64,000 nt of DNA, taken from NCBI GenBank assembly GCA_012798115.1, contig JAAZNV010000006.1, positions 19,232 through 83,231 on the forward strand. Direction: 5' to 3'. This DNA comes from a candidate division WWE3 bacterium. Lineage in GTDB: Bacteria > Patescibacteriota > WWE3 > UBA101185 > UBA10185. The notes under the pieces were generated by a model. It worked only from the letters and a program-made list of their open reading frames with translations. It made no database searches and had not been told where the DNA came from. Shown here piece by piece: positions 3,949 to 64,000 of the stretch (within the stretch, counting starts at the first letter, position 1; the number at the start of each line of letters is the position of its first letter). A program made the translations under genes and the position numbers.

Positions 3949-3999
3949 ATTTAAAGTATATAATTTTTATTAAACTTTAAAAGCCACAAACTAACATTA

Positions 4000-4722: not shown

Positions 4723-4769
4723 ATATTGTGTTTATCTTATCTACTGGTTTAATTGAGTATAATATAGCC

Positions 4770-5300
4770 ATGGTTTTGAGTGTAAATGACATAGATACTA
4801 TATCTCTATTGCTTAGTGAAGGCAAAATCGGTGTTTTACCTACGGATACAATCTATGGTATCCATTGTTTGGAAAACAGGAAGGATCTTATAGATAAGAT
4901 TAGTTGTATAAAAGGGAGGGAAAAATCTATACCCATGATAACAATGATCTGTAGCAATAAAGATTTAATGAACTTTGGAGTAAAGCTGGGAGAATTTGAA
5001 GATAAGATAATTTCTGAGTATTGGCCTGGACCAAATACTCTAATTTTTGATTTAGAACATAACGTCACGAAATCGTTTAGATTGCCGAATAATCATTTCT
5101 TGTTGTCTGTAATAAAGAAGAGTGGCTCATTAGTTTCAACTAGTGCAAATCCACATGGTATGTCTCCTTCCACGAATATTAATCAAGCAATAAGATACTT
5201 TGGGAAAAAAGTAGATTTTTATGTTGATGGCGGAGAGTTAGATAATCCACCGTCCAGCATCTATAAATTATCAAATAATAAGTTAGTAAAGATTAGATAA
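4770..5300 (+). CDS. tsaC: L-threonylcarbamoyladenylate synthase (TsaC/YrdC family).
   Basis: GVLPTDTIYGI and STSANPHG motifs. The start is set at the internal ATG 4770 to avoid the head-on overlap the track ORF (4704) has with the neighbour. Confidence 0.8.
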   Translation: MVLSVNDIDTISLLLSEGKIGVLPTDTIYGIHCLENRKDLIDKISCIKGREKSIPMITMICSNKDLMNFGVKLGEFEDKIISEYWPGPNTLIFDLEHNVTKSFRLPNNHFLLSVIKKSGSLVSTSANPHGMSPSTNINQAIRYFGKKVDFYVDGGELDNPPSSIYKLSNNKLVKIR

Positions 5301-26838: not shown

Positions 26839-26866
26839 GCCACAGTTTTCCTGTGGCTTTTTATAA
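26839..26866 (+). terminator. Second terminator-like hairpin GCCACAG-ttttc-CTGTGGC followed by TTTTT, ending 5 nt before ATG 26871.
   Basis: Seen in the sequence; argues the real start is ATG 26871 rather than the track GTG at 26853. Confidence 0.35.
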
Positions 26867-26870
26867 ATTT

Positions 26871-29800
26871 ATGAAAAAAATAAAAATAAAGATCCACAGT
26901 GAAAAACTGTTTTCGTATGTTGCTATGTTTTCTATGGTTGCAAATGTGTTATCTCCATTTGCAGCTGTGCTTCCTTCCACTGCTTATGCAGAAGGTTCTT
27001 CTACTACAGAAACTACTCAGCAAGTAGAGGAAGAATCTAAAGAAGAAGTTAAACCTGAGGAAGAAGCCCCTGCAGAAGAACCAGAAGGAACGGTAGAACA
27101 AATAGAAGAGCAGAGTACTGAAAAAGAAAGCACCGAAGAAACCCAAGAACCTGTACAAGAAGAAACTGCTGAGCCAAAAGTTTCAGTAGAGTCTTCAAAT
27201 GAAATACCAGAAGGTAAATTTACAATAGATTCAGTAGAGAGTCCTATAACAGAACCTGAAGTCGTAGAAGTTATAACTCCTGCTGAACCGGTAGTTGAAG
27301 AACCAGCAATGGTAGAAGAACAGACAGGAGATATACTTCCTGATGGAGTCTCTGACTACAGACCAGAGATAGAGATTGAAGAAGGTGAAGCTACAGAGGT
27401 TCAGGAAGTTGTAGATCCTGTTTCAACAGAAACTAGTAGTACAGAGCCGGAAGTAGTTATTACAGAGCCTAGTGAAACTGAACCAGCAGTAACTGTTGAA
27501 CCAATTACTCCAACTGAAACTGGAGAAACTCCTAAAGAAGTAATTAAAGAATATGAGACGTTAGCAGATGGAGCAGAAGTAAAAGATAGTACAAAAGAAG
27601 ATTGGGATATTGATGGGGAAAAAGCTGAAACGAGGGAAGTAGTTAAACTTGGTATTAAATATATTTTCCCTATAGATAGTGAGGATAATGAAGTTAGTGT
27701 TACATTTACTAAACTTCCAAAATTAAGTGAAGATAAATCTACTTTAATAATAGAAAGAGTAAAAGTATCAGATCTTGATTTACCTGAAGATTTTAAAACT
27801 GATGCAGAATATGCATTTGATATTACTACTCCAGATATGAATGATGGAGAATTTGAATATAATTTAACTCTTCCTAAACCTGAAGGTGTGGACGCAGAAG
27901 TTGCATATATAGAAAAATCAATAAATGAGGCTAAAGATGAAGTTAAGAGTGAAGATGTAAAAAAGGTTGAAGAAGATAAAATTGATCAGGACGGCGGAAG
28001 CATAAAAGTAGAAAGTTTAGATCACTTGACCTTATTTATTCCTCTTGGTGGTGTAGTTCTTAGTGTATCTGGTAGTTTTGATGGCGCAACACAGGTTACT
28101 GTGGAACCTGGGACTGCTATTGAAGTTGATATTACAGTAGAGCGTAGTGATGGTTGGGATTGGTGGAGTAATGATGTTGAAAATGATTGGAAAGCTACTT
28201 CTTGGAAAATAAATGATGGCTCTTGGAATTGTGAGAATCACAGTGATCATACATGGGGTAATGGGACAGACACAGGTTCCTTCAATATTACAGCTCCTCT
28301 GGCAGAAGGTACGTACGACGTCAGTTTCAGGGCACATAGAAGTAATTCATGCGAAGACACTGGTGTTAGTAATACATTTACGTTAACAAATGGAATTAAG
28401 GTTGAAAGTTACTCTGCTCCAAGTCCAACACTTCATTATAATGTTAACGATGATTATGTTTTAACATCTGTTTCAGGAGTCTGGACAGATGTAAATGGTG
28501 GTAGTGAAGTAACTGGCGAGGGAACTAATGAAGTTAGGTGGGGACGTAGCGCAGAATATGGCAAGAAGAGTGGATTAAGATTTGATGGCAGTGATCAACA
28601 AAGTTTTAATGAAGGAAGTAGTTTTTATCTTGGAGCATTAACGCACTTTAACTGGCCAATTACCAATGCTTCACGTGGAGCCACTCTTAAGATCACTTTG
28701 CATTTTTCTAAACCTGGTATAAGTCCAGATCCAGATTTTAGTTATGACTTTAATATAGAAGAAACTTCTAACAGCTATGGTCATTGTCTTTCTTGGCAGC
28801 AAAGTTCAACTCCTTGTGATGACAAGATAACATTTCCATCTAGTTATGGTGAAAAGAGTTTTACAATAGGAGATAAACTTTATACTCTAAAAATATTAGG
28901 ATTTGTTAACTCCTATCCAGGAGGTTCTCCTGTTTCTCAGTTTATTACAGAAGAACAAAAGAATAACACAGCTTATTTAGTTGGTACCCTTTCATCTGTT
29001 CTTGTTCCTGCTCCTCAAATAACCCTAGTTGAGAAAGCAATTAATGGTAATGATGCTGATTCGTCTCCTGGAGATAGCTTATATGTTGGAGATGCAGTAA
29101 CATTTACCTATCAAGTTCAAAATACAGGTAATGTTGATTTAACTAATATAGTTATTCATGATAACGACTCAAGTTTATCTGTTACTTGTCCTTCTACGTC
29201 TTTAACTTCTGGGTCTTCTATGACCTGTACAGCAACAAGTACCGTTAAGCTAGGGAATTATCACAATACTGCTTATGTAACAGCAAAGCATGGTTCTCAG
29301 TCTTTAAGGAGTAGTGATGAAGAAGGATATTATGTTGGTGTAAATAGAATAATTTGTGGCGATGGTATAAAAGATGTTTCGGAAGCATGTGATAACGGTC
29401 CTGATAATGGAGATGTTTGTACGGCTCCTTATGATGGGGATTGTAATTATTGTGGTGTAAGTTGTGAGATTATAACAGTGAGAGGGCCCTACTGTGGAGA
29501 TGGAACTAAGAATGGGTCGTCAGAACAGTGTGATGGTCTAGACTTGGGTAATCTACCATCTTCAGATTTTTCTTGTACTAAAAAATGTGAACTTAATTTA
29601 ATTCAAGATAAAGTAACTATTTGTCATGCTGACGCTTCTGGACATAAACCATATACCATCAATAAGCCAAATAAATCTGCTGATGTAAATGGACACGATG
29701 GGCATAATGGACCTATTTGGTTCCTAGGTATAACAGGCGATTGGGGAGATATAATTCCTCCATTTTATTACGTTGGGGGTTATTACGTCGGAAAAAACTG

Positions 29801-32800
29801 GACGCCTGAAGGTGAAGCAATTTGGAGGAACGGTTGTGATGTTCCACCATACTGTGGTGATGGGGTTATAAATCAGCCTACAGAACAATGTGATGATGCT
29901 AACTCTGTAAATAATGATGGGTGTAGTGCCACGTGCCAGCTTGAAACTGGAACAATTACAATTATTAAGGATGCACAACCTGATGATAGTCAAACATTTA
30001 ACTTTACATATGAGAGTAATCCTTATGCTATCGGTAATTTCAGCTTAACAGATAATGGAGGTGGCAATGAAAAGATAAGTTTTGCGTCTATTCCAATAGG
30101 GTCATACTCTTGGACTGAGGATCTAGTTACAGATTGGCGCTTGGATAGCATTGCATGTGATGATAGCAATAGCGTTGGGGACTTATCAGCAAGAAGAGTT
30201 GATGTTGTGTTAGATGCTAATGAACATGTAACTTGCATCTTTACTAATGTGTTGAAGACTGGGACAATCTCAGGAGTCAAATTTGAAGACATAAACGGCA
30301 ATCGTGTCCAGGACAGTAATGAACATGGACTATCTGGTTGGACAATATATATTGATAGCAATAAGAATAATCAATTGGATGCTGGTGAACCTACTCAGGT
30401 TACTGATGTAAATGGAAACTTTGTTTTCAATGGCTTAACTCCTGGAAAATACTGGGTGAAGGAAATTAATCAAACTGGTTGGAGTCAAACAGTGCCAGCA
30501 GGGCTATACCAGGAAGTTGATCTGAAAGCTGATGAAAATGAGTCTATATATTTTGGAAATCAAAGGAATCCAGTAACTATAAATGCATATAAAGTAGTTT
30601 GTGATAATGAGTCTTACTTACCAAATTATGGTATTGGTGGACCAGACATTACTTCTACAACAGCACAAGATTGGGTAAGTAACAGCAATGGACATTGTAA
30701 GCTTGAACCTAACTGGAAGTTCCAGTGGAGTTTTGATGGTGTAGATAATCCTGGAGATAATATAACCAGTGAAGCAGGAACAGGTTGGAATACTTTTGGT
30801 CCAACTGATGGTGATGGTTTTGCACAAGTTAAGATCTATCAGCTTGATACGCCTAAGCTTTGGTTTAGAGAAGTACTTCAAGATGGTTATATTCCATTTA
30901 CATATGGAGCACACCCCGATAATTCAGATAATGTAAGTGCTGAGTTTTACTGCAATGATGATGTTTTTAACTACGATAACTGGGAATGGATAGATAACCC
31001 GCAATACGGAAATACTTACTACTGTGTTGCATGGAACACACTAAAGAAGGGATCTTTAGAAGTAACAAAGACTGTAAACTGGACAGAAATTATTCCTGAT
31101 GTGTCAAAGACTTTTGAAGTATGTATAACAGGTCCTTCTTACACATCTGGAAACTGCAAGACGATAGATTATGATGGTGGAACTTTAACGTGGAATGATT
31201 TATTGCTGGGTGATTACACAATAACAGAATCTGATCTTGGTGCACATTGGTCAGTTGTTGGTTCTGGATCTGTAGTTTCAGTATCTGATTCCTCTACGAC
31301 ACATCAAATAACTAATACATACATCCCATACTGTGGCGATGGAGTTAAGAATGGAGCAGAGCAATGTGATGGGAGAAGTGGAGTTAATGAAGATATGGAG
31401 TTTTGTACTAGCCAGTGTAAGCTAGTTCCAGTTTACGATGGTAATCATGAGTGTCCAAAAGGAACAATTGAAAAATATATTACCGGAATTACTTTAGGTA
31501 GCCAAAGTAGTTCTTTGCAAACACTTAATTTATCAGGTGGGAGATCTTATCTTCTAAAAGCTTTTGGAACTTACCAATATGGTAGTGGTTCTACAAGAAA
31601 AGCTGACCCAGCTTATGGATCTGAGGATAATTTTGCTACCTGGAGACCTGATATAGGAATTTGGGGTGTAAACAACAGAGGTGTTACTTCAATTCTAGGA
31701 AATCTAGGACGTGGGATGGGTGTAATTGAATGGGATAACGATAAAAATATTGATGAAGATCACATTTATGAAAAGTTAATTAAGCCTGAAAGTGACTTGG
31801 AAGCAAAGTTTGTTATTAGCGACTGGTACAGCAATTGGTATGGAAACAGCTGTGATAATCAAGGTTGTATGACTGATAATAATGGCTCGTTGAATGTAGA
31901 TTTGTATGAATGTGTTGAACCAAGTTCAATTCAAGGAAAGAAATTCAAAGATGTTAATGGCAATGGGATAAGAGACAGTGGTGATACGTACCTTGATGGT
32001 TGGACAGTAAATCTGTATCAACAAAAAGAAGGGTGGAGTTTAGTAAAAAGCATGATAACAGGCAATGATTTAACTGAAGCTGGATCAGTAGATCAAGGTC
32101 AATACAGATTTGTTAATCTTCTTCCTGGAAAGTATTTAGTTTGTGAGGAACTTAAGTCTGGTTGGGTGCAAACAGCACCAGTTGAAGGGACTTCTTATAA
32201 CGGTACTACTTGTTACGAAATAGACCTAGCAGCTGGAAAAAGTGAGGTTGGAAAAGTGTTTGGTAACTTTGAATTAGGAAAAGTTCAAGGTATGAAGTTT
32301 AATGATCTAGATGGGGATGGAAACTCACATGAAACTGGTGAAGAATATTTAAATGGTTGGACAATTAGATTATATAAAGATTGGGCAGAACCAGTTGAAG
32401 TTATAACTTCAAATACAGGAACTTTAGGGCAATATAAATTCGAGAATTTAAAGCCAGGAACTTATCAGGTTTGTGAGGTTTTACAACAAGGATGGGTACA
32501 GACATGGCCAAGTGCTGGGGATATTCCAGTTGGAGACAATGGAGTTACACACCCCAACTATGGAACTGCTGTTATTAATTCATCTAGTGCTTTAGATGAG
32601 GGTGCAAATTGCTGGCAAACAGTAGTTTCCGCATCGGGTCAATTCAATCAGCTGTTAAGGTTTGGGAACTCAAATCTTGGATCAATTCATGGTATGAAGT
32701 ATATAGATACTTCTGGTGATGGGAACTTTGATAGCGGAACCGATTGGGGTGCTTCTGGTTGGACAATAAATTTGTATAAACTAGTTAATAGCACGTATGT

Positions 32801-34994
32801 TCTTGCAAGTTCGGTATCAACTGATTCAAATGGATATTATTCATTTGCAAATCTCGAGCAAGGAACATACAAGTTGGAAGAAGTTCAACAATCTGGTTAT
32901 CAAATTATAAATCCATCTGCAGGAATTTATGAAGGAATTATTTTAAATCCTGGAGATAATTTAACGAATTATAACTTTGGTAATTTCCAGAACGGGAGTG
33001 TGTACGGTTGCAAGTACAACGACTTAGACGGTGATGGTGTTAGAAATAGAGAAATTGAACCTCAAATGGCAGGTGTAACAATGAACTTATATGATTCTTC
33101 ATGGAATTTAGTAGCATCAACAGCTACATCTGAAGGCTCTGGATATGGTAATAATTACTCGTTTAGTAATCTTCTTGGAAAGGGTACTTATTACGTTTGT
33201 GAAGTAATGTGGAAAGGTTGGGCACAAACTGAACCTAACGCGGAAAATGGTGTACTAAATGTATCACCAAATGCAGAAAATGAAGGTTCTTACTGCAGAA
33301 AGATAGAAAATAACTACTCTGGTGGTGGTTATGCAAGTCAAAGGTTTGGTAATGTTTTTGTAAATCCAAAACTTCAAATCTCAAAGAGTAATGATGCATC
33401 TTCTGCAAAGAAGATTGGAGATATTGTTACATTTACCATAAAGGTAAAAGTATTAGACTTCAAGCTTGATAATGTAACAGTTCTAGATCTTCTTCCAAAA
33501 GGATTCATATTCCAAGATGAGGATTGGGGAGTAACCTCCAGCAACCCATTGTTTAGTTTCACAGGAGATCCTCATTATGCCTCTCCTGGGACATGGAAGT
33601 TAGGGAGTCTACAGAAAGATGAAGAAGTTACTATTACATATGAGGCTAAAGTTGGATCAGATGTAGACCCTGGTGTTTATAAAGATTTGGCTTGGACTTC
33701 TGGGGATGATATTTTAGGTAGTAATGTCTTAGGCTTGGCTCAAGATGGTAAGGTAAATGATTATTTTGTAGGTACAGAAGTTGAAGTAACAAAGGACAAG
33801 GATTCTACTAAAGATACAGTTGATGTGAAAGAAACAGAAGAAGAGGAAGAGAAAGAAGAAGTGTTGGGTGCTTCTGATGTAAGATTACCTGCTACAGGAG
33901 CTAGCACAGCTATACTAGATGTAGTTTTAATAGCTGGTTTAGTGGGAGCCTTACTTATGATAATTGGAGGTATAGGAAAAATGTTAAAAGCTAAAAAGAA
34001 AAAGGATAAAAACTCAAGACTTAAAAAAGCGTTGTTAACAATGCTTATGTTAAGTTTTAGTTTGATACTTACTAGTAAAGTGTATGCAGAGTCAGACTCT
34101 AAACTAGTTGCTAGAATAGAAGATCCTAAATCTCCTGCTATATCATCGTTCAGCTTAAGCTTTGTTGTTCTTGATGCAAATGAAACACCAAGAAGTATTG
34201 AAGCTCAATGCTGGAAGAAAGGCCCGCTTGATTTAGACTTTGTTAAGTTTGCAGATCCTAGCGTTGATGGTGTGGGTGGAAACACAAATAATTGTTTGGT
34301 TGATAATTCAGTATTAACAAAATCAGGGACATATGTGTTTAAAGTTAAGGTTAAGGCTGATAGCGGTGATTGGCAAGATTCAATAAACACAGCCGCTGTT
34401 GTGTTTGATAATGATGGACCTGATAAACCGAAATATATAGAAAAAGATAAGAAGTCTGATTGCAAATATGAGATAACGCTAAAAACAGCAGATGATGATC
34501 AAACATCTTATATAGAAGTGTATAAAGATGATGATAAAGAAATGAATCTTCATTCTGGTAACTTGATTAAGACTAAGACAATAGGACCTGATGAAAAATA
34601 TGAATTTACGTATGAAGTTTATAGCAGTGATTGTGCAAAAACATGGTATTTTGCTGTAATTGCATTTGATGATTCTGGTAATGCATCGGATCCTAGAGCT
34701 GAAGAAGTAGTTACAAAGGTTACAGTAACAAAAACTACTAAAACGGAAGAAGTGCTTGGGGCGCTTGAAGTTCCTGGTGGAGCAAACCTTTCGCAGGAAG
34801 GTGAAGGAGCAAACAAGGAAGTACCTACTAAGACTAGTGAAGAATCAAAAGGTGCAGTTCTTGGAGAAAAAACTCAAGAACAAGGATTTGTGCTAAGGGT
34901 AGTTAAGTCTTTATGGTTTTGGTTAATAATTGTTCTTCTTGTGTATATCATTGTACGTGTTGTTAAAAAGAAACAAAATAAAAAGAAAAGGTAA
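26871..34994 (+). CDS. Giant modular cell-surface protein (about 2707 aa) with an internal LPATG sorting signal and an in-frame C-terminal module.
   Basis: Signal peptide, acidic E/T/P-rich spacer, at least three CGDG...CDDGN Myxococcus-type Cys-rich repeats, five SdrD-B/Cna-B-like repeats (GxKFxDxNGNG...GWTIxLY...PGxYxVxE), a DUF11-like repeat, then LPATG, TM and KAKKKKDK tail. Confidence 0.85.
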   Translation: MKKIKIKIHSEKLFSYVAMFSMVANVLSPFAAVLPSTAYAEGSSTTETTQQVEEESKEEVKPEEEAPAEEPEGTVEQIEEQSTEKESTEETQEPVQEETAEPKVSVESSNEIPEGKFTIDSVESPITEPEVVEVITPAEPVVEEPAMVEEQTGDILPDGVSDYRPEIEIEEGEATEVQEVVDPVSTETSSTEPEVVITEPSETEPAVTVEPITPTETGETPKEVIKEYETLADGAEVKDSTKEDWDIDGEKAETREVVKLGIKYIFPIDSEDNEVSVTFTKLPKLSEDKSTLIIERVKVSDLDLPEDFKTDAEYAFDITTPDMNDGEFEYNLTLPKPEGVDAEVAYIEKSINEAKDEVKSEDVKKVEEDKIDQDGGSIKVESLDHLTLFIPLGGVVLSVSGSFDGATQVTVEPGTAIEVDITVERSDGWDWWSNDVENDWKATSWKINDGSWNCENHSDHTWGNGTDTGSFNITAPLAEGTYDVSFRAHRSNSCEDTGVSNTFTLTNGIKVESYSAPSPTLHYNVNDDYVLTSVSGVWTDVNGGSEVTGEGTNEVRWGRSAEYGKKSGLRFDGSDQQSFNEGSSFYLGALTHFNWPITNASRGATLKITLHFSKPGISPDPDFSYDFNIEETSNSYGHCLSWQQSSTPCDDKITFPSSYGEKSFTIGDKLYTLKILGFVNSYPGGSPVSQFITEEQKNNTAYLVGTLSSVLVPAPQITLVEKAINGNDADSSPGDSLYVGDAVTFTYQVQNTGNVDLTNIVIHDNDSSLSVTCPSTSLTSGSSMTCTATSTVKLGNYHNTAYVTAKHGSQSLRSSDEEGYYVGVNRIICGDGIKDVSEACDNGPDNGDVCTAPYDGDCNYCGVSCEIITVRGPYCGDGTKNGSSEQCDGLDLGNLPSSDFSCTKKCELNLIQDKVTICHADASGHKPYTINKPNKSADVNGHDGHNGPIWFLGITGDWGDIIPPFYYVGGYYVGKNWTPEGEAIWRNGCDVPPYCGDGVINQPTEQCDDANSVNNDGCSATCQLETGTITIIKDAQPDDSQTFNFTYESNPYAIGNFSLTDNGGGNEKISFASIPIGSYSWTEDLVTDWRLDSIACDDSNSVGDLSARRVDVVLDANEHVTCIFTNVLKTGTISGVKFEDINGNRVQDSNEHGLSGWTIYIDSNKNNQLDAGEPTQVTDVNGNFVFNGLTPGKYWVKEINQTGWSQTVPAGLYQEVDLKADENESIYFGNQRNPVTINAYKVVCDNESYLPNYGIGGPDITSTTAQDWVSNSNGHCKLEPNWKFQWSFDGVDNPGDNITSEAGTGWNTFGPTDGDGFAQVKIYQLDTPKLWFREVLQDGYIPFTYGAHPDNSDNVSAEFYCNDDVFNYDNWEWIDNPQYGNTYYCVAWNTLKKGSLEVTKTVNWTEIIPDVSKTFEVCITGPSYTSGNCKTIDYDGGTLTWNDLLLGDYTITESDLGAHWSVVGSGSVVSVSDSSTTHQITNTYIPYCGDGVKNGAEQCDGRSGVNEDMEFCTSQCKLVPVYDGNHECPKGTIEKYITGITLGSQSSSLQTLNLSGGRSYLLKAFGTYQYGSGSTRKADPAYGSEDNFATWRPDIGIWGVNNRGVTSILGNLGRGMGVIEWDNDKNIDEDHIYEKLIKPESDLEAKFVISDWYSNWYGNSCDNQGCMTDNNGSLNVDLYECVEPSSIQGKKFKDVNGNGIRDSGDTYLDGWTVNLYQQKEGWSLVKSMITGNDLTEAGSVDQGQYRFVNLLPGKYLVCEELKSGWVQTAPVEGTSYNGTTCYEIDLAAGKSEVGKVFGNFELGKVQGMKFNDLDGDGNSHETGEEYLNGWTIRLYKDWAEPVEVITSNTGTLGQYKFENLKPGTYQVCEVLQQGWVQTWPSAGDIPVGDNGVTHPNYGTAVINSSSALDEGANCWQTVVSASGQFNQLLRFGNSNLGSIHGMKYIDTSGDGNFDSGTDWGASGWTINLYKLVNSTYVLASSVSTDSNGYYSFANLEQGTYKLEEVQQSGYQIINPSAGIYEGIILNPGDNLTNYNFGNFQNGSVYGCKYNDLDGDGVRNREIEPQMAGVTMNLYDSSWNLVASTATSEGSGYGNNYSFSNLLGKGTYYVCEVMWKGWAQTEPNAENGVLNVSPNAENEGSYCRKIENNYSGGGYASQRFGNVFVNPKLQISKSNDASSAKKIGDIVTFTIKVKVLDFKLDNVTVLDLLPKGFIFQDEDWGVTSSNPLFSFTGDPHYASPGTWKLGSLQKDEEVTITYEAKVGSDVDPGVYKDLAWTSGDDILGSNVLGLAQDGKVNDYFVGTEVEVTKDKDSTKDTVDVKETEEEEEKEEVLGASDVRLPATGASTAILDVVLIAGLVGALLMIIGGIGKMLKAKKKKDKNSRLKKALLTMLMLSFSLILTSKVYAESDSKLVARIEDPKSPAISSFSLSFVVLDANETPRSIEAQCWKKGPLDLDFVKFADPSVDGVGGNTNNCLVDNSVLTKSGTYVFKVKVKADSGDWQDSINTAAVVFDNDGPDKPKYIEKDKKSDCKYEITLKTADDDQTSYIEVYKDDDKEMNLHSGNLIKTKTIGPDEKYEFTYEVYSSDCAKTWYFAVIAFDDSGNASDPRAEEVVTKVTVTKTTKTEEVLGALEVPGGANLSQEGEGANKEVPTKTSEESKGAVLGEKTQEQGFVLRVVKSLWFWLIIVLLVYIIVRVVKKKQNKKKR
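30258..33240 (+). repeat. Region encoding five divergent SdrD-B-like (Cna-B type) beta-sandwich repeats, interleaved with other domains, inside the giant CDS.
   Basis: Repeating protein pattern (I/V)xG(V/M)K(F/Y)xDxNG(N/D)G...GL(S/D)GWT(I/V)xLY...GxYxFxNLxPGxYxVxE...GWxQTxP, seen five times. Confidence 0.6.
33885..33899 (+). other. LPATG sortase recognition motif codons (followed by a hydrophobic segment 33900-33980 and a basic tail), internal to the giant ORF.
   Basis: TTA CCT GCT ACA GGA read directly; downstream ASTAILDVVLIAGLVGALLMIIGGIG then KMLKAKKKKDK. Confidence 0.75.
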
Positions 34995-55455: not shown

Positions 55456-56216
55456 TAAATTTTAGTCTTTGTACAATATCCATTTTTAGCAATATTATTG
55501 AAGATAGAACTACGTATTGCTATCATAAGATTATGGATCTGCCTATTGATTCTTTACAAGATAAGGAGTTAAGCTCAGAAGTGAATAATAAATCTTCCTC
55601 TAAGAAAACCTTAATTATTCTGTTTACCTTTTTGTCTTTAGTGCTCGTATTATTTGGTATTCTCTATGGTGTTAATACGGGTGTCTTTAATTCTATACTT
55701 AAGATAAAAACTGATGAGAATAAAGAAGATTTAAGTGTAATAAAAAATACTGTTGATGGCAAAGACACAGCTTTTGGAAGTTTAGTCAATAAAAGTGAGG
55801 TTCTAACTCAAGAAATATCAGCAAATGATTTTCTAACTTTTAAGGAAAAGATGCTTTCTGGGATAAGCGATGAACTTTGGAATTGGAAGGATGATTTTGC
55901 TCACGTCAATGTTTACGAGATGAATAAAGGGGAAGGTATTATTTATGTGGGTTTTTTGATTCCTGGTGATAGTAGATTTAGTGGAAGTGATAATATCAAA
56001 GAACATTCTGCTGTTAAGGTGTCTTGTTTAGATGAATTTACACTTGTTGTTGATCCATCAAGCTTAGAAGTTACCAAAACTGGGGTAAATTTATTTGATA
56101 ATCTTATACCTGGAAAGGACTCACTTCTTTTTAAATGTTCCGATGAAAAGTGTAGAGAAACAAGAAAGGAGTGTCTCATATTAAAAGATGCAAATACAAA
56201 TACCAATACTGAGTAA
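55401..56216 (+). CDS. Membrane-anchored hypothetical protein (likely start is the internal MDLPID near 55533).
   Basis: TM ([21 protein letters not shown]) then a Cys-containing domain. Confidence 0.4.
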
Positions 56217-58386
56217 CTTTCGTATTAAATATGTGCTATATGCTATAGCTCTTCTTTTTGTTATTTGTTTTCCTTTAAAACACTCTTTTGCTTGTAGCAC
56301 TTGCCCATCTGGGTGGAAAGATGGTGGAGATGTTTGTTACACAGGTGAGGGGTGTCCCTCTTGGGTGTGTAGATGGTGGGGGTGTGTGAATTGGAAGTGT
56401 GGTAGGTGTAAATATGCTGCTGGTGGTTGTGAGGCTTGGACTGGAGGCGTTTGTACAAAATGGTGTTGGAGGAACTACTCCCCTTATGGATACTACTGTT
56501 GTGGTCCTCGTACGCCACGAGAGTGTATAAGATGGGCTGAGGATTGTACTAAGTGTGGTTCTGATTGTGTTGCTAATGGGTGGATAACAGGTAATTGTGA
56601 GGGGAGTTGCTTCCTATGTCCTTGTACTCCAGTAAATGGAGGATGGTCAGCATGGAGTACATGTTCTAAAACATGTGGAGGAGGAACTCAAACAAGAACA
56701 TGTACTAATCCTTCTCCATCATGTGGAGGATCATCATGTTCTGGAGCATCATCTCAAGCTTGTAATACTCAAGCATGTGATGTTTTACCAATTGGTGCTC
56801 ATGATTCTTCAAATTGTAGTTGTTCTGGTCAAGTTACAGCAAGTGGATGGGCTTGTGATCAAAACAACTGGTCATCTGATTTAAATATAGACTTCTATAG
56901 AGATGGAACATCATCAACAGGAATATTTATTGGTTCAACCATTGCAAGCAGTTCAAGACCAGACTTAGGAAGTGGCTGTGGTGGAGATATAAACCATGGA
57001 TTTAAATTTACATCATCTTCTCAACCTACTGGATCTCATTCAATTTATGCTTATGCTACAGATGTACCTCTTGGCACCAAAAGCTTGCTTGCAAACTCTC
57101 CAAAGTCAATTACTTGTGGATTAACATACACACTAAAGATAAACATTAAAGATGCTTCAAATGGTTGCAGCAGTCTTGGAGAAGGAATTGAAGGAGCAAA
57201 AGTTTATGTATATAAATCAATTGGAGGAATAGCAGGAGATCCAATTACTGGCTCTCCAGCTACATCCAACTCAAATGGAGTTGCAACATTTGAAAATGTT
57301 TCAGTTTTGGATAAAAGCTTTATCATTTCAGTATCCAAGTCAACAGGAGGATCAAACCCAATATATTACCAGCTAACTTGTCCAACACTTTCACTATACA
57401 AGATAACTTTTGATCCTTCTCCTACTGCTTGTTCTACTCAAACTATTAATCTTGGAATAAAACAAATTAAGAAAGATCCATGGTTAACAGTAATAGATGG
57501 AGATATCTTTTCATCAAATGTATCTGTTGTTGTTCCTCAAGGAGAAGGATCAGGTGATTTTTCCTTATCTCTTGTTAATTCAAAAGACAAAGTAACTGGA
57601 GGATATATATTTACCAAAGGATATATATCAACAAATGACAACTCTTTGTATGAGCCCAGTCTTGGAGGAAAAATCTTTGATATATCTCAAAGATCAAGCT
57701 TAAATCATGATGATATATCTTTAATGAACCTATCAAAAAGAAGCTTTTCTCCTCCAACTCATGATATGGTTGTAGAAACATCAAGCATATCATCATTTGA
57801 AGCTGGAAAGGTATACAAGATATCAGTTTTGGATTTTAACAATAAAATCTCATCTTCTCCAGTTGTCTATACAGTATCTTCATCATCTGAAGAAGAGTTA
57901 TCTTCAAAAGGAGTATCAACTGCAATACTATACATAACAAGTGATAATAATGATACTGATATAGTCTTTAAAAACTCATATACATCATCAAACAACAACT
58001 CAAGGTTAATAATAGTTACAGATTTAAATGTTGTAGTATCATCAAATGTTGGGTTTTCTAACATATCAACATACACCATAAACTCTTTACCATTAATTCA
58101 AGCTGCAATAATATCTTCAAAAGATATATCTTTTGAATCCAAAGGTACTTCTCCTGCATCAGATATTCCTATCATGGTAACAGGACCTTTGATTACCTCA
58201 TCAAATATATTACGAGGAAGAAACATTGGGTCATTAAATGGGTATTATCCTTCCTTAGCAGTATCTTTTTATCCTAAATATCTTTATGATATTGCAGTTA
58301 TAGAAAGATACATGTCAAAGACATATGATATAAGATCATATACAGGAATATCTTCTTATGATCTTCAATTTGATTATCAACCTTAG
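56188..58386 (+). CDS. Secreted Cys-rich protein with a thrombospondin type-1-like repeat and a long Ser/Thr-rich C-terminal region.
   Basis: Signal peptide, then about 28 Cys in 190 aa, including [21 protein letters not shown], which matches the TSP1 consensus WSxWSxCSxTCGxGxxxRxRxC. Confidence 0.6.
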
Positions 58387-58523: not shown

Positions 58524-59696
58524 ATGGCAATATCGGAATTTAATGCAGCAATAAGTCAAGTTGCAGCTGAAAAAGGAATAACTGTAGAAAGTGTTCTTGA
58601 ATCAGTTAAATCTGCATTAGCTACAGCTTATAAAAAAGACAGAAGAGAAGCTGGAGAAAAGGTGGAGCTAGAAGAAATAGTTGTAGACCTTAACCCAGAT
58701 ACTGGAGAAGTAAAAATATTAAAAGATGGTATGGATGTAACCCCTTCTGGATTTGGAAGAATAGCTGCACAAACTGCAAAACAAGTAATGGTCCAAAAGA
58801 TAAGAGAAACAGAAAAAGATGTTGTAACATCTGAATTCAAAGAAAAAATTGGTCAAATCATGTCTGGCATAGTATTTAGAATAGACAGAGGAACTGTAAC
58901 TCTTGATATGGGAAAAAATAGAAGCCAAGGAGTAATGCCAAAAAGTGAACAAGTACCTACAGAAGCTTATAGAATAAACCAAAGATTAAAGGTATTAGTA
59001 AAAGACATACAAGACACTACAAGAGGAACAGAAATTATTGTTAGTAGATCAGATCCTAAATTTGTAATTGAACTATTTAAACAAGAAGTTCCAGAAATAG
59101 CATCAGGTGTAGTAGTAATTGAAGCCATTGCTAGAGAAGCAGGATCAAGAACTAAAATGGCAGTATCTTCAAGTGATGAAAAGATTGATCCAGTAGGAAG
59201 TTGTGTTGGACAAAAAGGAGTAAGAGTTCAATCAATAATATCTGAGTTATTTGGAGAAAAGATAGATATTGTTCCTTATTCAAATATTACAGAAAAGTTT
59301 ATTGCTGCAAGCTTATCTCCTGCAAAAGTTACTGAAGTAGAATTGAATAAAGAAGAAAACAGAGCAATAGTGACTGTACCTGAAGACCAACAAAGTTTAG
59401 CAATTGGAAAAGAAGGTCAAAACGCAAGACTTGCAAACAAATTAACTAAATGGAAGATAGACATTAAAGGAATAGCTGGAGTATTCTCAAGTGAAGATGT
59501 AGAACAAGGTCTTGTTGGAGCAACTCCTGAAAAGGTGGTTGGGTTTTGGGATGAAGAAATCAAAAAAGCTAATGAAGCAGAAGAAGCTAAAAGGCAAGAG
59601 AAGAAAAATATAGAAGAAGCAGTTAAATCTTCTGATAACAAGGAATCTGTTGAGCAGAAAGAACAAGAGCAAACTGAAGAAAAAGTTGAAGAATGA
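58524..59696 (+). CDS. nusA: Transcription termination/antitermination factor NusA.
   Basis: N-terminal domain, S1, two KH (GSCVGQKGVRVQSII), acidic tail. Confidence 0.9.
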   Translation: MAISEFNAAISQVAAEKGITVESVLESVKSALATAYKKDRREAGEKVELEEIVVDLNPDTGEVKILKDGMDVTPSGFGRIAAQTAKQVMVQKIRETEKDVVTSEFKEKIGQIMSGIVFRIDRGTVTLDMGKNRSQGVMPKSEQVPTEAYRINQRLKVLVKDIQDTTRGTEIIVSRSDPKFVIELFKQEVPEIASGVVVIEAIAREAGSRTKMAVSSSDEKIDPVGSCVGQKGVRVQSIISELFGEKIDIVPYSNITEKFIAASLSPAKVTEVELNKEENRAIVTVPEDQQSLAIGKEGQNARLANKLTKWKIDIKGIAGVFSSEDVEQGLVGATPEKVVGFWDEEIKKANEAEEAKRQEKKNIEEAVKSSDNKESVEQKEQEQTEEKVEE

Positions 59697-59754
59697 AAAT
59701 GAAGTGCAGCTTACTTAACTTAAAAGTTAATAACTTTAAGAAGTTACTTAAAAT

Positions 59755-61248
59755 ATGGTCAATGAAAACAAAAGCAAAATTGAACAAAATATTAGAGCTC
59801 CAATTGTTACCGTTATGGGGCATGTTGACCATGGTAAAACCAGTATCCTTGATGCATTAAGAAAAACACACGTCCAAGAAAATGAATATGGTGGAATAAC
59901 TCAGCACATAGGTGCTTATCAAATATCCAAAGGCAATAAAAAAATTACATTCATTGACACCCCTGGTCATGCTGCGTTTGCTCAAATGAGAGCAAGAGGT
60001 GGAAAAGCAGCTGATATTGTTGTCCTAGTTGTTGCTGCAGATGAAGGGGTAAAGCCTCAAACAAAAGAAGCAATATCTCATATTAAAGCTGCTAACGTTC
60101 CTTTAATTGTTGCAATAAACAAAATGGATAAACCTGGAGCTGATCCAAGAAAAGTTAAGCAAGAACTAGCTCAAGAAAGCATATTAGTTGAAGATTGGGG
60201 AGGAAGTGAGTTATGTGTAGAATTATCTGCAAAAACGGGAGAAGGGTTAGACAAACTTTTAGATGCAATTCTCCTTTTGGCAGAAATGAATAACTTAAAA
60301 GGTGACCCTAAAGGAGAATTGGAAGCAATAATTATTGAATCAAGACTTGATAGAAAAAAAGGTGTTGTTGTTTCTTGCATAGTTAGAAATGGAACTTTAA
60401 GAGTGGGGGACAAGATAACAGCTAGTGGCTATAACGCAAAGGTTAGGTCAATGGTTGATGCAAATGGTAAGAATGTTAAGGAAGCCTTTCCTTCTGATCC
60501 TGTTGAGATACTTGGGTTTAGTAACGTTCCTCATGTTGGGGATTTAATCCTAACCGAAGGAAGTGAATTAGCTATATTATCACAAGATGAAGATAAAGTG
60601 GAAGTTGTTGGTAAAGATGCAAAAAGAATGATTTCTATCATTCTAAAAGCAGATACTCAAGGAACACTAGAAGCAGTAAAAAGCAGCCTTGCTGATCTTG
60701 TTACTACATCTTCTGCAGAAACAACATATGCTTTAAAATTTCTTCATTCTGGAACAGGAGATATAACAGAATCAGATGTAATGCTTGCCCAAAGTGGAAA
60801 AGGGGTTGTTATTGGGTTTGATGTTAGAATACCTTCTTCTGTAGAAGATTTAGCAGAGGCATCTGAAGTAATAGTTAAAACATACAAGACTATCTATGAT
60901 CTTATTGATGATGCAGCAAAACTTCTTGAAGGAACTGCAATTACAGAAACTTCAAAGATAAAAGGAAGAGCTAAAGTATTAAAGTTATTTAAACTTGAAT
61001 CTGGAGACATTATTGCAGGTTGTAAAGTATTAGCAGGAGCTTTAAAAGTTAAAGCTAGAGTTGCAATTTATGATAAAAATCCTGCAGATTTAAAGAAGGA
61101 AGATGAACCTTTGTTTTATGGTTCTATTAAAAAGCTTAAGAAAGGAAAAGATGATATTGATGTAGCTGGGAAAGATAATGAATGTGGAGTTCTTCTTAAA
61201 CCTCAATATGAAGAAATAGCTGAAGAGATGTATTTGGAGGTTCTTTAA
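59755..61248 (+). CDS. infB: Translation initiation factor IF-2 (short form lacking N-terminal extensions).
   Basis: G domain GHVDHGKTSILDAL, DTPGH, NKMD; C-terminal beta-barrels. Confidence 0.92.
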   Translation: MVNENKSKIEQNIRAPIVTVMGHVDHGKTSILDALRKTHVQENEYGGITQHIGAYQISKGNKKITFIDTPGHAAFAQMRARGGKAADIVVLVVAADEGVKPQTKEAISHIKAANVPLIVAINKMDKPGADPRKVKQELAQESILVEDWGGSELCVELSAKTGEGLDKLLDAILLLAEMNNLKGDPKGELEAIIIESRLDRKKGVVVSCIVRNGTLRVGDKITASGYNAKVRSMVDANGKNVKEAFPSDPVEILGFSNVPHVGDLILTEGSELAILSQDEDKVEVVGKDAKRMISIILKADTQGTLEAVKSSLADLVTTSSAETTYALKFLHSGTGDITESDVMLAQSGKGVVIGFDVRIPSSVEDLAEASEVIVKTYKTIYDLIDDAAKLLEGTAITETSKIKGRAKVLKLFKLESGDIIAGCKVLAGALKVKARVAIYDKNPADLKKEDEPLFYGSIKKLKKGKDDIDVAGKDNECGVLLKPQYEEIAEEMYLEVL

Positions 61249-61290
61249 TTTTAAAGGCCCTATCAATTATTGTTTTGATAAGGCCTCCAA

Positions 61291-62583
61291 TTAGTTAAAG
61301 TCTTTTCTGTTGTAGAAAACATCTCCTTTCTCGTCTACATTCCAAACTCCTTGTGCCCATTCTCCAGTGTAGGGATTGTATGTGCAGTTAGGAAAGGGTG
61401 CAGATTTAAACCCTATTTTCTCTCCGCAACTGCTGTATGATAAAGCTCTGCAATCATCACAGCAGTAACGATACTCACAGTCTTTACACACCAGTACGTC
61501 GTCCTTTGTATTTTTCCAGATGCTTTGAACGTTACTCTGGTTTACTAGATCACTTAGTCTAGATTCTCTACTGTTACCTAACACAATACTTCTCGAAAAG
61601 ATACACGGTAAGTAATCTCCGAATTCTGTTATAGTGATCTTTCCTTTGAGACACGAGTTGAAGGATCTAGATTTGCATATTGACTGTAGATCTGCGTAAA
61701 AGTTTGGTTTTGTTACTAATCCGTACTTTAGGTAGTACTCTAAGTCAGGTACTGTATCAATATCAGATCCCCGACCGGAAGGTCTGACCAGATCTACTTT
61801 TCCGTCTTTGATCCCTAAACCCTTTCTAAATTCTATAGTTTCTTCGATGGTATGTTGGTTTATTTTGGTTACCACTATTTCTGCCCTGACACTTACACCG
61901 AGATCCAAAAGCAATTTAATATTTTCTACAGTTCTCTTAAAACTTCCTGGTGTTCTTGTCACGGCATCATGTATCTCCTCTTTGTTTGAGTATAAAGTGG
62001 TTGCAATACTTAAACCCAATTTCTTAATGCATTGTATTTCAAGTGGTTTTACCAATGTGAGATTAGTAAAAAGCTCAACAAATTTCCAACCAACTTGCAG
62101 AGCGTACTCGGACAAATCTAGAACTGAGTGTCCAAATTTGTCTTTGTACTCGAAGGGTTCCCCACCTATAAACTGACACTTTCTGCATCCAAGAGAAAAT
62201 CCCTCTTCAATCAAACTTTTCCAGTCCAAATGTGTGAGAGTTTCTCTAGTTTCGCTATGGATGTCTTCTTTTGGAGGTCTTGAGTTAGAGTAACAGTGGA
62301 TGCACTGCAAGTTACATTTTTTAGTACAGATCTCAAACCACACAAAATCCAATTTAGCCACGCCTCTATCTTTCGGTATTGTACTGTCCACATATCTGTC
62401 AGTTACTTCGGCCAATCCTAATTTCTGTAAATCCTTCCAATAGTTGTCTTCTTTCTGACCATTCTGGATAATACTGACCGCGGATTTATTAATAGAGTAA
62501 ACTTTTTTGGAATTTGTATCTAGTATTGCCCCTCTTAATGCTCCTGTTACAAGGTACACCCCTGGTGAAAGCTTGTAGGCCAT
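61291..62583 (-). CDS. Radical SAM/SPASM-domain peptide-modifying enzyme with an N-terminal PqqD-like RRE (RiPP maturase candidate).
   Basis: CNLQCIHC (Cx3Cx2C) about 90 aa from the N-terminus; C-terminal Cys cluster CKDCEYRYCCDDCRALSYSSCG...C (SPASM/twitch-like); N-terminal AILDTNSKKVYSINKSAVSIIQNG...LQKLGL resembles PqqD/RRE. Confidence 0.8.
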   Translation of the reverse strand: MAYKLSPGVYLVTGALRGAILDTNSKKVYSINKSAVSIIQNGQKEDNYWKDLQKLGLAEVTDRYVDSTIPKDRGVAKLDFVWFEICTKKCNLQCIHCYSNSRPPKEDIHSETRETLTHLDWKSLIEEGFSLGCRKCQFIGGEPFEYKDKFGHSVLDLSEYALQVGWKFVELFTNLTLVKPLEIQCIKKLGLSIATTLYSNKEEIHDAVTRTPGSFKRTVENIKLLLDLGVSVRAEIVVTKINQHTIEETIEFRKGLGIKDGKVDLVRPSGRGSDIDTVPDLEYYLKYGLVTKPNFYADLQSICKSRSFNSCLKGKITITEFGDYLPCIFSRSIVLGNSRESRLSDLVNQSNVQSIWKNTKDDVLVCKDCEYRYCCDDCRALSYSSCGEKIGFKSAPFPNCTYNPYTGEWAQGVWNVDEKGDVFYNRKDFN

Positions 62584-62635
62584 TATTATATTATCTCCTT
62601 TCTCTAGTTTATTGGTGAGTATACTACACTACCTT

Positions 62636-63394
62636 TTAATATTTTTCATCTTCATCTTTATTGTACTGCGGATATTTTTCTTGCATTATTTTAAGGAATT
62701 GGTATATGTCTATTTGTTTACCGATTAGGTAGTTGTTCCAGTCCTCCAAAATATCTTTCTCCACTTTTTGTAAATGTTTATGTCCAACAGATTCTTTATT
62801 ACACTTAAAGTAGTACCCAGTTTTATTTAATCTTAACCTCATTTCATTATCTGAAATTAATTCTATTATTGCGTGTTCCAATACAGAATATTTAAATAAA
62901 GAATGAAGAAATTCATGAACTAAATAAACTAGGCTATAGTTTTTCCAGTGTTCGTACTGTCCCCAAAAAATTTTGTTGTGAGAATTTTTACCTATATGTA
63001 ATAATGAGCCAAATATAAACACATCAAAATTATTATTTGGTATAGGTATTCTTAGAATATTCTGCATCTCCTTATGTATGAGATCTTTGTTTGTTTTCCA
63101 TTGTTTCTCTAACCACTCTTTATGCTCTGATGCATTTTTTAACAAAGTAGAGAACTGCTTTGATTCAAGCCCATCTTGCAATATTCCTACAATATCCTCA
63201 TTTGCCTGATTTAGAATATTCTTAACATTATCGTTAAGTAATAATTCTTGATAGTTCCCCTGTAGTAATTGATACCCCATTTGGTACTTTTTCCACAGTG
63301 AATTTTGTAAGTCCACCCACCCTTCAATATCTGGATTTTGCATTAGCCCTGTAATAAATAGTATTTCTTTTGAGATTTTAAAATGTAGTTCCAT
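62636..63394 (-). CDS. HExxH-motif protein (putative zinc metallopeptidase or scaffold) between the precursor and the radical SAM gene.
   Basis: LVYLVHEFLHSLF then ...VLEHAIIE; no other family recognised. Confidence 0.5.
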   Translation of the reverse strand: MELHFKISKEILFITGLMQNPDIEGWVDLQNSLWKKYQMGYQLLQGNYQELLLNDNVKNILNQANEDIVGILQDGLESKQFSTLLKNASEHKEWLEKQWKTNKDLIHKEMQNILRIPIPNNNFDVFIFGSLLHIGKNSHNKIFWGQYEHWKNYSLVYLVHEFLHSLFKYSVLEHAIIELISDNEMRLRLNKTGYYFKCNKESVGHKHLQKVEKDILEDWNNYLIGKQIDIYQFLKIMQEKYPQYNKDEDEKY

Positions 63395-63424
63395 ATATGT
63401 TTTATTCTAAAATACTTATCTAAA

Positions 63425-63463
63425 TAAAAAAAGCGGACGGAATTTCTTTCGATAACTCCGTCC
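63425..63463 (-). terminator. Intrinsic terminator or attenuator hairpin (GGACGGA-loop-TCCGTCC then U7 on the minus strand) 7 nt after the precursor stop.
   Basis: Inverted repeat 63435-63441 / 63457-63463 and A7 run 63425-63432 on the plus strand, seen directly. Confidence 0.55.
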
Positions 63464-63469
63464 TTGAAG

Positions 63470-63628
63470 CTATTGTTTTGGTGCACATTGTGGTATGCAG
63501 TTAGGACTACACCCATTACCTACGTCTGGGCTGCATCTGGAAGTAGTTTTATTTACTTCAGATACGTCAGTCACAAGAAGAATTTCAGGTTTTTCTTCTT
63601 TAGTACTTGGTTTTTTAGCAGTATCCAT
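63470..63628 (-). CDS. Candidate RiPP precursor peptide (52 aa) with a Cys-rich C-terminal core.
   Basis: MDTAKKPSTKEEKPEILLVTDVSEVNKTTS|RCSPDVGNGCSPNCIPQCAPKQ, with four C-x-P-x units. ATG 63628 has RBS GAGAAAGGAG 8 nt upstream. The track ORF extends to GTG 63703, but the predicted promoter lies inside that extension. Confidence 0.55.
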   Translation of the reverse strand: MDTAKKPSTKEEKPEILLVTDVSEVNKTTSRCSPDVGNGCSPNCIPQCAPKQ

Positions 63629-63657
63629 AGCACGTGCTCCTTTCTCTAATAATGCTA

Positions 63658-63685
63658 ATATTACACTGCTTGAAACAACTGTCAA
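63658..63685 (-). promoter_or_regulatory. Sigma70-like promoter for the precursor operon (TTGACA, 16-nt spacer, TAATAT on the minus strand).
   Basis: -35 at 63680-63685 and -10 at 63658-63663 (minus strand), read directly. Confidence 0.4.
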
Positions 63686-63798
63686 TTTGAGCGCTGTTGA
63701 CACTATAAGTCAAATATTGTACAATACCCATGATTCTGATACCATACTAAGTTCCTAACTTAATTATCCTGCTTTTAAATAAATATTATGAATGGTGA

Positions 63799-64000
63799 AA
63801 TAGATAAAACAAATCAAATAATAGAACTGTTAAAAGAAGCAAATAACATTGCAGTAGTACCTTCTAAAGTAGCTGGTGTTGATGCATTTGCTGCTGGAGT
63901 AGGGCTATACTTCATGCTTAAAGATTTAAATAAAAACGTTACCGTTGTTTATCCGGGGGCTAAGCCAGAAGAATTTACTGATTTAACAGATGTAAACATT
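63799..64000 (+). CDS. NrnA/DHH-family phosphoesterase-like protein, N-terminal fragment (continues past the window edge).
   Basis: MNGEIDKTNQIIELLKEANNIAVVPSKVAGVDAFAAGVGLYFMLKDL resembles the NrnA N-terminus (xHxxPDGDAxGS..AL), with PDGD replaced by VAGVD. Confidence 0.35.

Follow-up and report, generated by a model that had tools for sequence, protein, structure and literature searches.

A predicted RiPP-type Cys-x-Pro peptide maturation cassette in a WWE3 bacterium and its relatives

What is made by a compact group of three genes lodged among the housekeeping genes of a small-genome bacterium? The question is raised by contig JAAZNV010000006.1 (assembly GCA_012798115.1) of a candidate division WWE3 bacterium, a member of the Patescibacteriota. 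The window analysed here is the whole 64,000-nucleotide stretch from position 19,232 to 83,231 of that contig, and coordinates given without a locus name refer to it. The group comprises a small Cys-rich open reading frame (ORF), a gene for an HExxH protein and a gene for a radical S-adenosylmethionine (SAM) enzyme with a SPASM domain. An initial annotation, made from the letters alone, read it as a candidate cluster for a peptide made on the ribosome and then modified post-translationally (a RiPP), modified by a radical SAM/SPASM enzyme. This reading is supported and sharpened by the present analysis. The locus is assigned with high confidence as a RiPP-type Cys-x-Pro peptide maturation cassette, and that it constitutes a real precursor-and-maturase system is very probable. 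Its coding parts are as follows.

63470–63628, minus strand: precursor gene, 52 amino acids (aa), with ATG at 63628 and a stop codon ending at 63470
62636–63394, minus strand: HExxH protein, 252 aa, with HEFLH at residues 160–164 (nucleotides 62903–62917) and E184 at nucleotides 62843–62845
61291–62583, minus strand: radical SAM/SPASM peptide maturase of 430 aa, served by an AAGGAG ribosome-binding site of its own
62398–62583, minus strand: RiPP recognition element (RRE)-like N-terminal domain of the maturase, approximately residues 1–62, predicted as four strands, two helices and one short strand
62293–62316, minus strand: CX3CX2C cluster motif of the maturase (C90, C94, C97), invariant in 22 homologues
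61384–61653, minus strand: SPASM auxiliary-cluster region of the maturase, C311-x10-G-x4-C327 ... C366-x2-C369-x5-C375-x2-C378 ... C400

The precursor reads MDTAKKPSTKEEKPEILLVTDVSEVNKTTSRCSPDVGNGCSPNCIPQCAPKQ. Its leader contains EKPEILLVT, its core RCSPDVGNGCSPNCIPQCAPKQ has four Cys-x-Pro units, and its C-terminus reads ...CAPKQ. The last 22 residues hold four Cys, as initially described, and 4/4 lie inside C-x-P triplets. The precursor ORF is the sole segment, in any frame of the whole window, with at least three CxP within 40 aa. The cluster had been drawn to end at 63703. This position is indeed in the precursor frame, as the GTG that begins a longer, 77-aa reading; because the GTG lies upstream of the promoter-like site, the ATG at 63628 is the start to use. 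The precursor of the closest relative, locus L085, begins at the equivalent ATG. Public data hold the frame only as an unnamed 77-aa ORF. The precursor has no match in Pfam or NCBIfam, and the matches of its profile among 5.8 billion proteins are all unnamed or 'hypothetical' peptides. The core fits no recognised motif family, as had been noted, and has neither a SCIFF layout nor an FxSxx-COOH tail.

Is this small ORF part of a recurrent system? Homologues of the radical SAM enzyme form at least 326 clusters, with more than 410 bits for each of the 120 best, and share 30–59% identity with it. The 84 loci with a homologue that were collected (724 kb, read in six frames) come mostly from Patescibacteria, namely WWE3, Woese-, Roizman-, Ames-, Curtiss-, Levyi- and Dojkabacteria. 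At 30–40% identity there are also loci from Chloroflexota, Latescibacterota, Deltaproteobacteria, Clostridia, Bathyarchaeia and Methanothrix. In almost every locus a small ORF stands beside the radical SAM gene on the same strand, with a leader like E-P-x-I-x-L-V-T/S and a Cys-x-Pro core. CxP-dense segments, defined as stop-to-stop frame segments with at least four CxP per 40 aa, occur on the same strand and within 1.2 kb of the radical SAM gene in 53 of the 84 loci. All six frames of the 724 kb contain 58 such segments; in the 64-kb window the precursor is the single one. Fifty-seven lie within 1.2 kb of a radical SAM gene and on its strand; the 58th is 1.3 kb from one, also on its strand, with an HExxH gene between. 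Loci that fall under the threshold still show the same leader, with two to three Cys.

The motif is sharply defined. Among 66 distinct precursors, 418 of 456 Cys sit in C-x-P, and the number of units per precursor ranges from 2 to 19 (median 6). The strict leader motif is found in 32 of the 66 and ends a median of nine residues before the first Cys. Spacing between Cys residues is variable, with modes at 4 and 6, and back-to-back triplets occur in L060 (CQPCSPCNP...) and L063. Position +1 of the triplet is nearly free, position -1 is often Pro, and position +3 is D, N, T or S at about half of the sites. Patescibacteria substrates are 39–99 aa long and have a clear leader and core layout. Deltaproteobacterial substrates (L043, 5248–5790, and L083) are 172–189 aa long; in them a block of CxPx repeats lies between an N-terminus of twin-arginine-like type and a PG_binding_1 domain (1e-13) at the C-terminus. 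In archaeal and other distant members (L042, L052, L053, L058, L059 and L061) substrates of 120–170 aa are encoded upstream of the radical SAM gene, and a long helix, charged and heptad-like, comes after the CxP block, as in ...LDKLTAEVEELKKKVGR. A further distant member is L072 (NZ_AUUU01000125, Clostridium sp. LS, 3827–5299), in which the radical SAM enzyme is 31% identical and the precursor is MDFELIEINNISSSTECFPDFFDDCNPTSDEDCMPNGYPDPEIGSYLK. This record carries no metagenome-assembled genome (MAG) label and is presumably from a cultured isolate, which could provide a handle for experiments.

The initial annotation had let its reading depend on homologues lying beside small Cys-rich ORFs and on conservation of the small ORF as coding sequence. 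The homologues are almost always so placed, and coding conservation is seen in L085. This relative, at 59% identity, has the same gene order and the same neighbours, infB to one side and the DHH-like gene, rpsO and pnp to the opposite side. The L085 precursor keeps the leader and the C-terminal GCSPNC(I/A)PQCAPK, and ends GCSPNCAPQCAPK. Many of the differences between the two precursors are synonymous or fall at third codon positions. The same data bear on whether the small ORF is a chance frame, the two enzymes acting on something else. The ORF is short, and NCBI-style gene calls do not include it as a 52-aa product. Near-exclusive co-localisation, the conserved leader and motif, and conservation at the codon level effectively refute the chance-frame explanation, which is scarcely credible.

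The enzyme of the cassette can be placed firmly at the superfamily level. It matches PF04055 (4e-15, 56.8 bits against a cut-off of 29.5) and PF13186 (1.9e-6, 28.5 bits against a cut-off of 21.5), and its SPASM region scores 27.0 bits with TIGR04085, equal to the cut-off of 27. The Cx3Cx2C and C-terminal Cys clusters recognised at the outset are composed of invariant Cys: across the 22 homologues the seven SPASM Cys do not vary, nor does the GGEP SAM motif. The protein is a member of the radical SAM superfamily and of its SPASM subfamily. Of 74 family members, 59 have the seven canonical SPASM Cys and no more; the other 15 carry an extra Cys, at inconsistent positions. In the window enzyme, C304 (nucleotides 61672–61674), 8 residues before the first SPASM Cys, is conserved only in the enzyme's own subclade (L085, L001 and L006) and may change the ligation of auxiliary cluster I.

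The nearest matches of the enzyme are RiPP maturases. In hidden Markov model (HMM) comparisons its best full-length alignments are with the sactipeptide maturases StsB and AlbA. An AlphaFold model (predicted local distance difference test score, pLDDT, 82) is placed by Foldseek closest to SkfB, SuiB and CteB, all RRE-bearing RiPP maturases, over 396–464 columns. A non-RiPP clade, the remaining outcome that would have told against the initial reading, was not indicated: no sulfatase-maturase or cofactor family emerged. NCBIfam cut-offs are reached neither by the window enzyme nor by eight distant homologues. Neither the clade of the enzyme nor the precursor nor the HExxH partner is covered by a Pfam or NCBIfam family or by a PDB relative.

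What might the HExxH protein contribute? It is present as first described, and its HEFLH motif belongs to a predicted gluzincin fold in which E184 lies 20 residues past the second His, as in thermolysin. An HExxH on the active-site helix, a Glu ligand some 20 residues further along in the following helix and a thermolysin-like fold are the marks of a gluzincin; with these marks in its predicted structure, the protein is a predicted gluzincin-type zinc metallopeptidase and a candidate leader peptidase. It falls in no Pfam family and has no NCBIfam match at E up to 1. Its profile finds 447 relatives among 1.8 billion representatives, nearly all of them proteins of approximately 250 aa that lack known domains. 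In a set of 80 non-redundant loci, the family of the window protein (family 1) is a neighbour in 15 and a second family with the motif HEFGH (family 2, approximately 280 aa) in 22, so that one or the other flanks the precursor in 37. Family 2 has no relative in Pfam or among PDB sequences; single members match zincin-like models at E ~0.05. Examples of family 2 lie at L004 3069–3911 (minus strand) and L002 5692–6537 (minus strand), with 20 other loci, beside CxP precursors, many of which end in a Pro-rich tail such as ...PPKPPGPN. The two families accompany the same kind of precursor, which fits an accessory role open to different proteins; as the HExxH partners are unrelated, this would be a clear instance in which an accessory enzyme was replaced by a non-orthologous one. 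Homologues of the window protein that are 48–59% identical to it also lie in L087 (3001–3753), L088 and L089 (3001–3789) with no radical SAM gene near; these are flanked by genes for VIT1-like proteins, thioredoxin and sortase, or for an alpha/beta hydrolase.

A leader-peptidase role for the HExxH protein is judged probable, with moderate confidence. Another proposal counts it not with the peptidases but with the HExxH oxygenases that use Fe(II) and alpha-ketoglutarate, such as ChlH, BpmH and PflC; it would then hydroxylate the modified peptide or cleave it by oxidation. The FxsB-type HExxH domains (IPR026337/TIGR04267) are now known to be Fe/alpha-ketoglutarate hydroxylases (PMC12636437), and the initial annotation had compared the window protein with them. 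This comparison is not supported: the protein has no TIGR04267 match, and the best 25 NCBIfam matches of the radical SAM enzyme do not include FxsB. The oxygenase proposal is considered unlikely.

A leader–core precursor beside a modifying enzyme is the general genetic signature of a RiPP cluster. The locus has this arrangement, from which modification of the peptide is predicted. The explanation that best fits the whole is a working three-gene RiPP cassette with thioether chemistry and removal of the leader by the HExxH protein, which as a whole we believe to be more probably right than wrong. The proposed steps are these. (i) The hydrophobic EPEILLVT strand of the leader would dock on the RRE-like N-terminal domain of the enzyme. 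(ii) The enzyme would then act on each Cys-x-Pro of the core, four here and 2–19 elsewhere. (iii) Auxiliary cluster I would bind the thiolate of the substrate at an open site, and a radical reaction would join the Cys sulfur in a thioether to a carbon that lies within the triplet or immediately behind it, much as sactipeptide and ranthipeptide synthases do. (iv) The cytoplasmic HExxH protein, as a gluzincin-fold zinc peptidase, would then remove or trim the leader. (v) Through the hairpin that follows the precursor gene, more mRNA would be maintained for the precursor than for the enzymes.

Which chemistry is carried out at the triplet? Since triplets occur at any spacing, even back to back, the CxP site appears to be self-contained. 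The enzyme would either alter the Cys as such or join it to a carbon of x, of Pro or of the next residue. A change of the Cys itself is what the main rival proposes. Here the same cassette would convert each C-x-P Cys to C-alpha-formylglycine, or stop at a thioaldehyde or dehydro stage, and a poly-aldehyde peptide would result. It is the main rival because the anaerobic sulfatase-maturing enzyme (anSME) is the one characterised radical SAM/SPASM enzyme whose motif begins C-x-P. Comparison of structures does not separate it from the thioether reading. Several sequence features do speak against it. Arg at position +4 is not enriched (18 of 403 sites), and the anSME model is absent from the best 25 NCBIfam matches and from the SPASM-region matches at E up to 10. 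The anSMEs have eight ligating Cys and are not known to have an RRE or leader system, whereas the present family has an RRE-like domain and a leader and most of its members have seven Cys. Formylglycine formation is considered quite improbable.

The thioether is favoured for three reasons. Several of the nearest alignable enzymes are thioether synthases (StsB, AlbA, SkfB and CteB); most family members have only the seven canonical SPASM Cys; and D, N, T and S, the residues common at +3, are typical ranthipeptide acceptors. In the CteB structure, seven SPASM Cys leave an open iron for the substrate thiolate. Thioether chemistry at Cys-x-Pro, taken by itself, is a tentative assignment, somewhat short of an even chance. 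A serious possibility, though less likely than not, is a new RiPP class with undescribed radical SAM chemistry, for which Cys-x-Pro would serve as the recognition unit. Candidate reactions for such a class are a three-residue Cys-to-Pro or Cys-to-x thioether ring, iterated up to 19 times, and serial conversion of Cys to formylglycine.

Several observations weigh against the thioether cassette as outlined. The precursors have no conserved acceptor residue, as D, N, T or S at +3 is found in just about half of the sites. The PqqD-like RRE of the initial annotation is supported by the predicted fold of the N-terminal domain and escapes sequence searches: neither the PqqD HMM of Pfam (22 homologues, E up to 1) nor a profile of the N-terminal domain, compared with PDB sequences, detects it. 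The two HExxH families are unrelated in sequence (hhalign probability 2%) and have the motif alone in common. Family 1 homologues are also found without a radical SAM neighbour (L087 and L089), so that this family is not exclusive to the cassette. The window contains no transporter or immunity gene with the cassette, and no export route is seen. The non-Patescibacteria substrate, finally, is a 120–190-aa protein with extra domains, for which reason the picture of a small secreted natural product may not hold throughout the family.

The last two points also belong to a different explanation, in which there is no diffusible product. The system would instead mature a polypeptide rich in Cys and Pro that has a structural, cell-surface or metal-binding role, much as QhpD acts on QhpC or as in the HxsA system, and the 52-aa peptide would be a minimal version of it. 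The deltaproteobacterial substrate with its twin-arginine-like N-terminus and PG_binding_1 domain agrees with such a role, as do the archaeal and other substrates of 120–170 aa with a C-terminal helical tail, the lack of an exporter or immunity gene in the window, and the retention of the cassette in many reduced genomes. The Patescibacteria members follow classical RiPP logic, with substrates of 39–99 aa divided into leader and core, an enzyme with an RRE-like domain and a dedicated protease-like partner, and ABC exporters adjoin the cassette in nine loci; on this balance the structural role is judged improbable. The thioether RiPP cassette remains the preferred explanation, and the modified Cys-x-Pro block may be as much a structural or surface module as a free peptide.

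How is the cassette embedded and expressed? Its elements all lie on the minus strand, separated by short spacers, between infB and a DHH-like gene. The promoter-like site, ribosome-binding site and hairpin with T-run reported initially are each present on that strand. These elements and the flanking genes are as follows.

63658–63685, minus strand: sigma-70-like promoter, with -35 TTGACA at 63685–63680, a 16-nucleotide spacer, -10 TAATAT at 63663–63658 and TG before the -10
63637–63642, minus strand: Shine–Dalgarno sequence AAGGAG, 8 nucleotides upstream of the precursor ATG, read from the sequence
63422–63463, minus strand: stem-loop (stem 63463–63435) and T-run (63432–63426), between the precursor and enzyme genes
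59755–61248, plus strand: infB, flanking gene, confirmed
from 63788, plus strand: short DHH-like gene, the other flank of the cassette

The promoter-like site (TTGACA-16-TAATAT) scores 10/12. Matches of this type are not commoner in the window than in shuffled sequences (14 found versus 10.7 expected). The TTGACA and the TG-extended -10 keep their position in L085. The hairpin has an outer stem of 10 bp, a folding energy of -17.9 kcal/mol and a z-score of -3.4; a simple terminator scan did not flag it, though folding detected it. Strong hairpins occur at the equivalent place 3' of the precursor gene in L001 and L006. The element is probably a leaky intrinsic terminator or a transcript-stabilising hairpin. 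A search of window positions 60500–64000 against Rfam gave no match.

Of the flanking assignments, nusA and infB are confirmed. The nrnA-like label given to the gene on the other side stands less securely: the L085 orthologue matches DHH at E 1e-4, below the cut-off. In the public annotation the two enzymes of the cassette appear as 'radical SAM protein' and, for the HExxH protein, 'hypothetical protein'. GC content is 0.30–0.385 in the cassette and 0.30–0.37 in the flanks, and gives no sign of recent foreign origin. The cassette is set on the opposite strand inside a conserved housekeeping array, nusA–infB ... DHH-like–rpsO–pnp (window 58524–64000; L085 1–5529). Other lineages have other sites. 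In L001 the cassette lies beside a two-component system and type IV pilus genes, and in L004 beside an ABC transporter and secA. The recurrent neighbours among the 80 non-redundant loci are ABC exporters (9), histidine kinases (6) and a second radical SAM/SPASM gene (5). Examples of such extra neighbours are found at L001 1327–2757, L034 1672–3933, L062 6563–7987 and L047 5640–7448; the kinases are of the GAF/HisKA type. Elsewhere in the window, a 732-aa ORF just upstream of nusA (56188–58386, plus strand) has a hydrophobic N-terminus followed by approximately 200 aa very rich in Cys, Trp and Gly. By eye it is thrombospondin type-1 repeat-like; it has no Pfam match at E up to 0.001. A giant ORF of 2713 aa occupies 26853–34994 (plus strand).

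Why might such a cassette matter? One survey found no biosynthetic gene clusters at all in its Patescibacteria MAGs (PMC11613949). Searches of full-text literature, subscription-only papers excepted, turned up no account of a CxP-repeat radical SAM family or of a Patescibacteria cassette of this kind, and met 'Cys-X-Pro' only in papers on sulfatases. If a new RiPP class is indeed present, no peptide-modification system would be more widespread than this one in the Patescibacteria, or Candidate Phyla Radiation, a group usually reported with few or no biosynthetic clusters, and the cassette may bear on their cell-surface or episymbiotic biology. Its retention in the small genomes of WWE3, Woesebacteria, Roizmanbacteria, Amesbacteria, Levyibacteriota, Dojkabacteria and others makes it likely to matter to the biology of the host. 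Judged by the export-signal and peptidoglycan-binding fusions of other phyla, the modified Cys-x-Pro block may be a module, structural or functional, that can be put to repeated use. Radical SAM RiPP families have been a repeated source of new peptide chemistry, and in this one the target motif is sharply defined and three residues long, the cassette is compact, with three genes, and the natural substrate variants number in the hundreds.

How, then, does the cassette relate to known systems? The sactipeptide and ranthipeptide maturases (AlbA, SkfB, StsB, CteB/SCIFF and PapB) are alike in their radical SAM and SPASM domains and in a Cys-rich core behind a leader, their RRE has a counterpart here in the RRE-like predicted fold, and the 7-Cys SPASM region of the present enzyme is compatible with their binding of a substrate thiolate. 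The precursor here departs from the SCIFF, CX3D and hairpin layouts: its C-x-P triplets are autonomous, their Pro is invariant, and an acceptor is not conserved. Membership of the individual families is rejected. The enzyme scores 71.5 bits against a cut-off of 850 for AlbA (NF012164) and 76 against 625 for StsB (NF045574). The SCIFF/ranthipeptide maturase model TIGR03974 is not among the best 25 NCBIfam matches, and the precursor does not match TIGR03973. PapB (NF047865) turns up only for the distant homologue L053, at 74 bits versus 340. The anSMEs, which recognise C/S-x-P/A-x-R of sulfatases, differ in that the present family lacks the +4 Arg, has an RRE-like domain and would modify a leader-bearing, multi-site peptide. 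No HMM tie beyond the superfamily connects the two, the substrate here is a leader peptide, and an extra Cys is seen in 15 of 74 members only.

The CXXX-repeat system (TIGR04115 maturase, TIGR04117 target) is alike in presenting tandem Cys repeats to a radical SAM enzyme, and the deltaproteobacterial members of the present family read CSPTCTPTCTPS..., in a CXXX register. Its period is a fixed CXXX, in contrast to C-x-P at variable spacing. TIGR04115 is not matched by nine enzymes of the family, nor in domain-wise scans, and TIGR04117 is matched only at E 0.1 by one deltaproteobacterial precursor. Triceptide and FxsB systems (TIGR04269, TIGR04267/IPR026337; ChlB–ChlH) share the pairing of a radical SAM/SPASM enzyme with an HExxH protein and a three-residue unit. 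They differ in that the HExxH protein here is separate and more similar to M1/thermolysin peptidases, and in that the unit has no aromatic residue; a precursor ending in CAPKQ, with the missing TIGR04267 and FxsB matches, sets FxsB-type membership aside. The grasp-with-spasm maturase (TIGR04193) is the best match for the SPASM region and C-terminal extension, at 93 bits over the last 146 aa. This is below the cut-off of 175, just the C-terminal third aligns, and the window offers no ATP-grasp neighbour; besides this model, the domain-wise scan gave the generic SPASM model alone.

Two further systems illuminate the accessory protein and the larger substrates. The AplP-type peptidases of the M1 family are leader peptidases of class III lanthipeptides and have a gluzincin catalytic fold. 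The HExxH protein is predicted to share this fold and is a candidate for the same leader trimming. Unlike the AplP type, it is a stand-alone 252-aa core without the M1 N- and C-terminal domains and without detectable sequence similarity. The deltaproteobacterial substrates mirror the layout of HxsA, which belongs to the His-Xaa-Ser radical SAM system. The cassette follows a known logic, that of radical SAM/SPASM RiPPs, with a target motif, an enzyme clade and accessory proteins that are apparently new.

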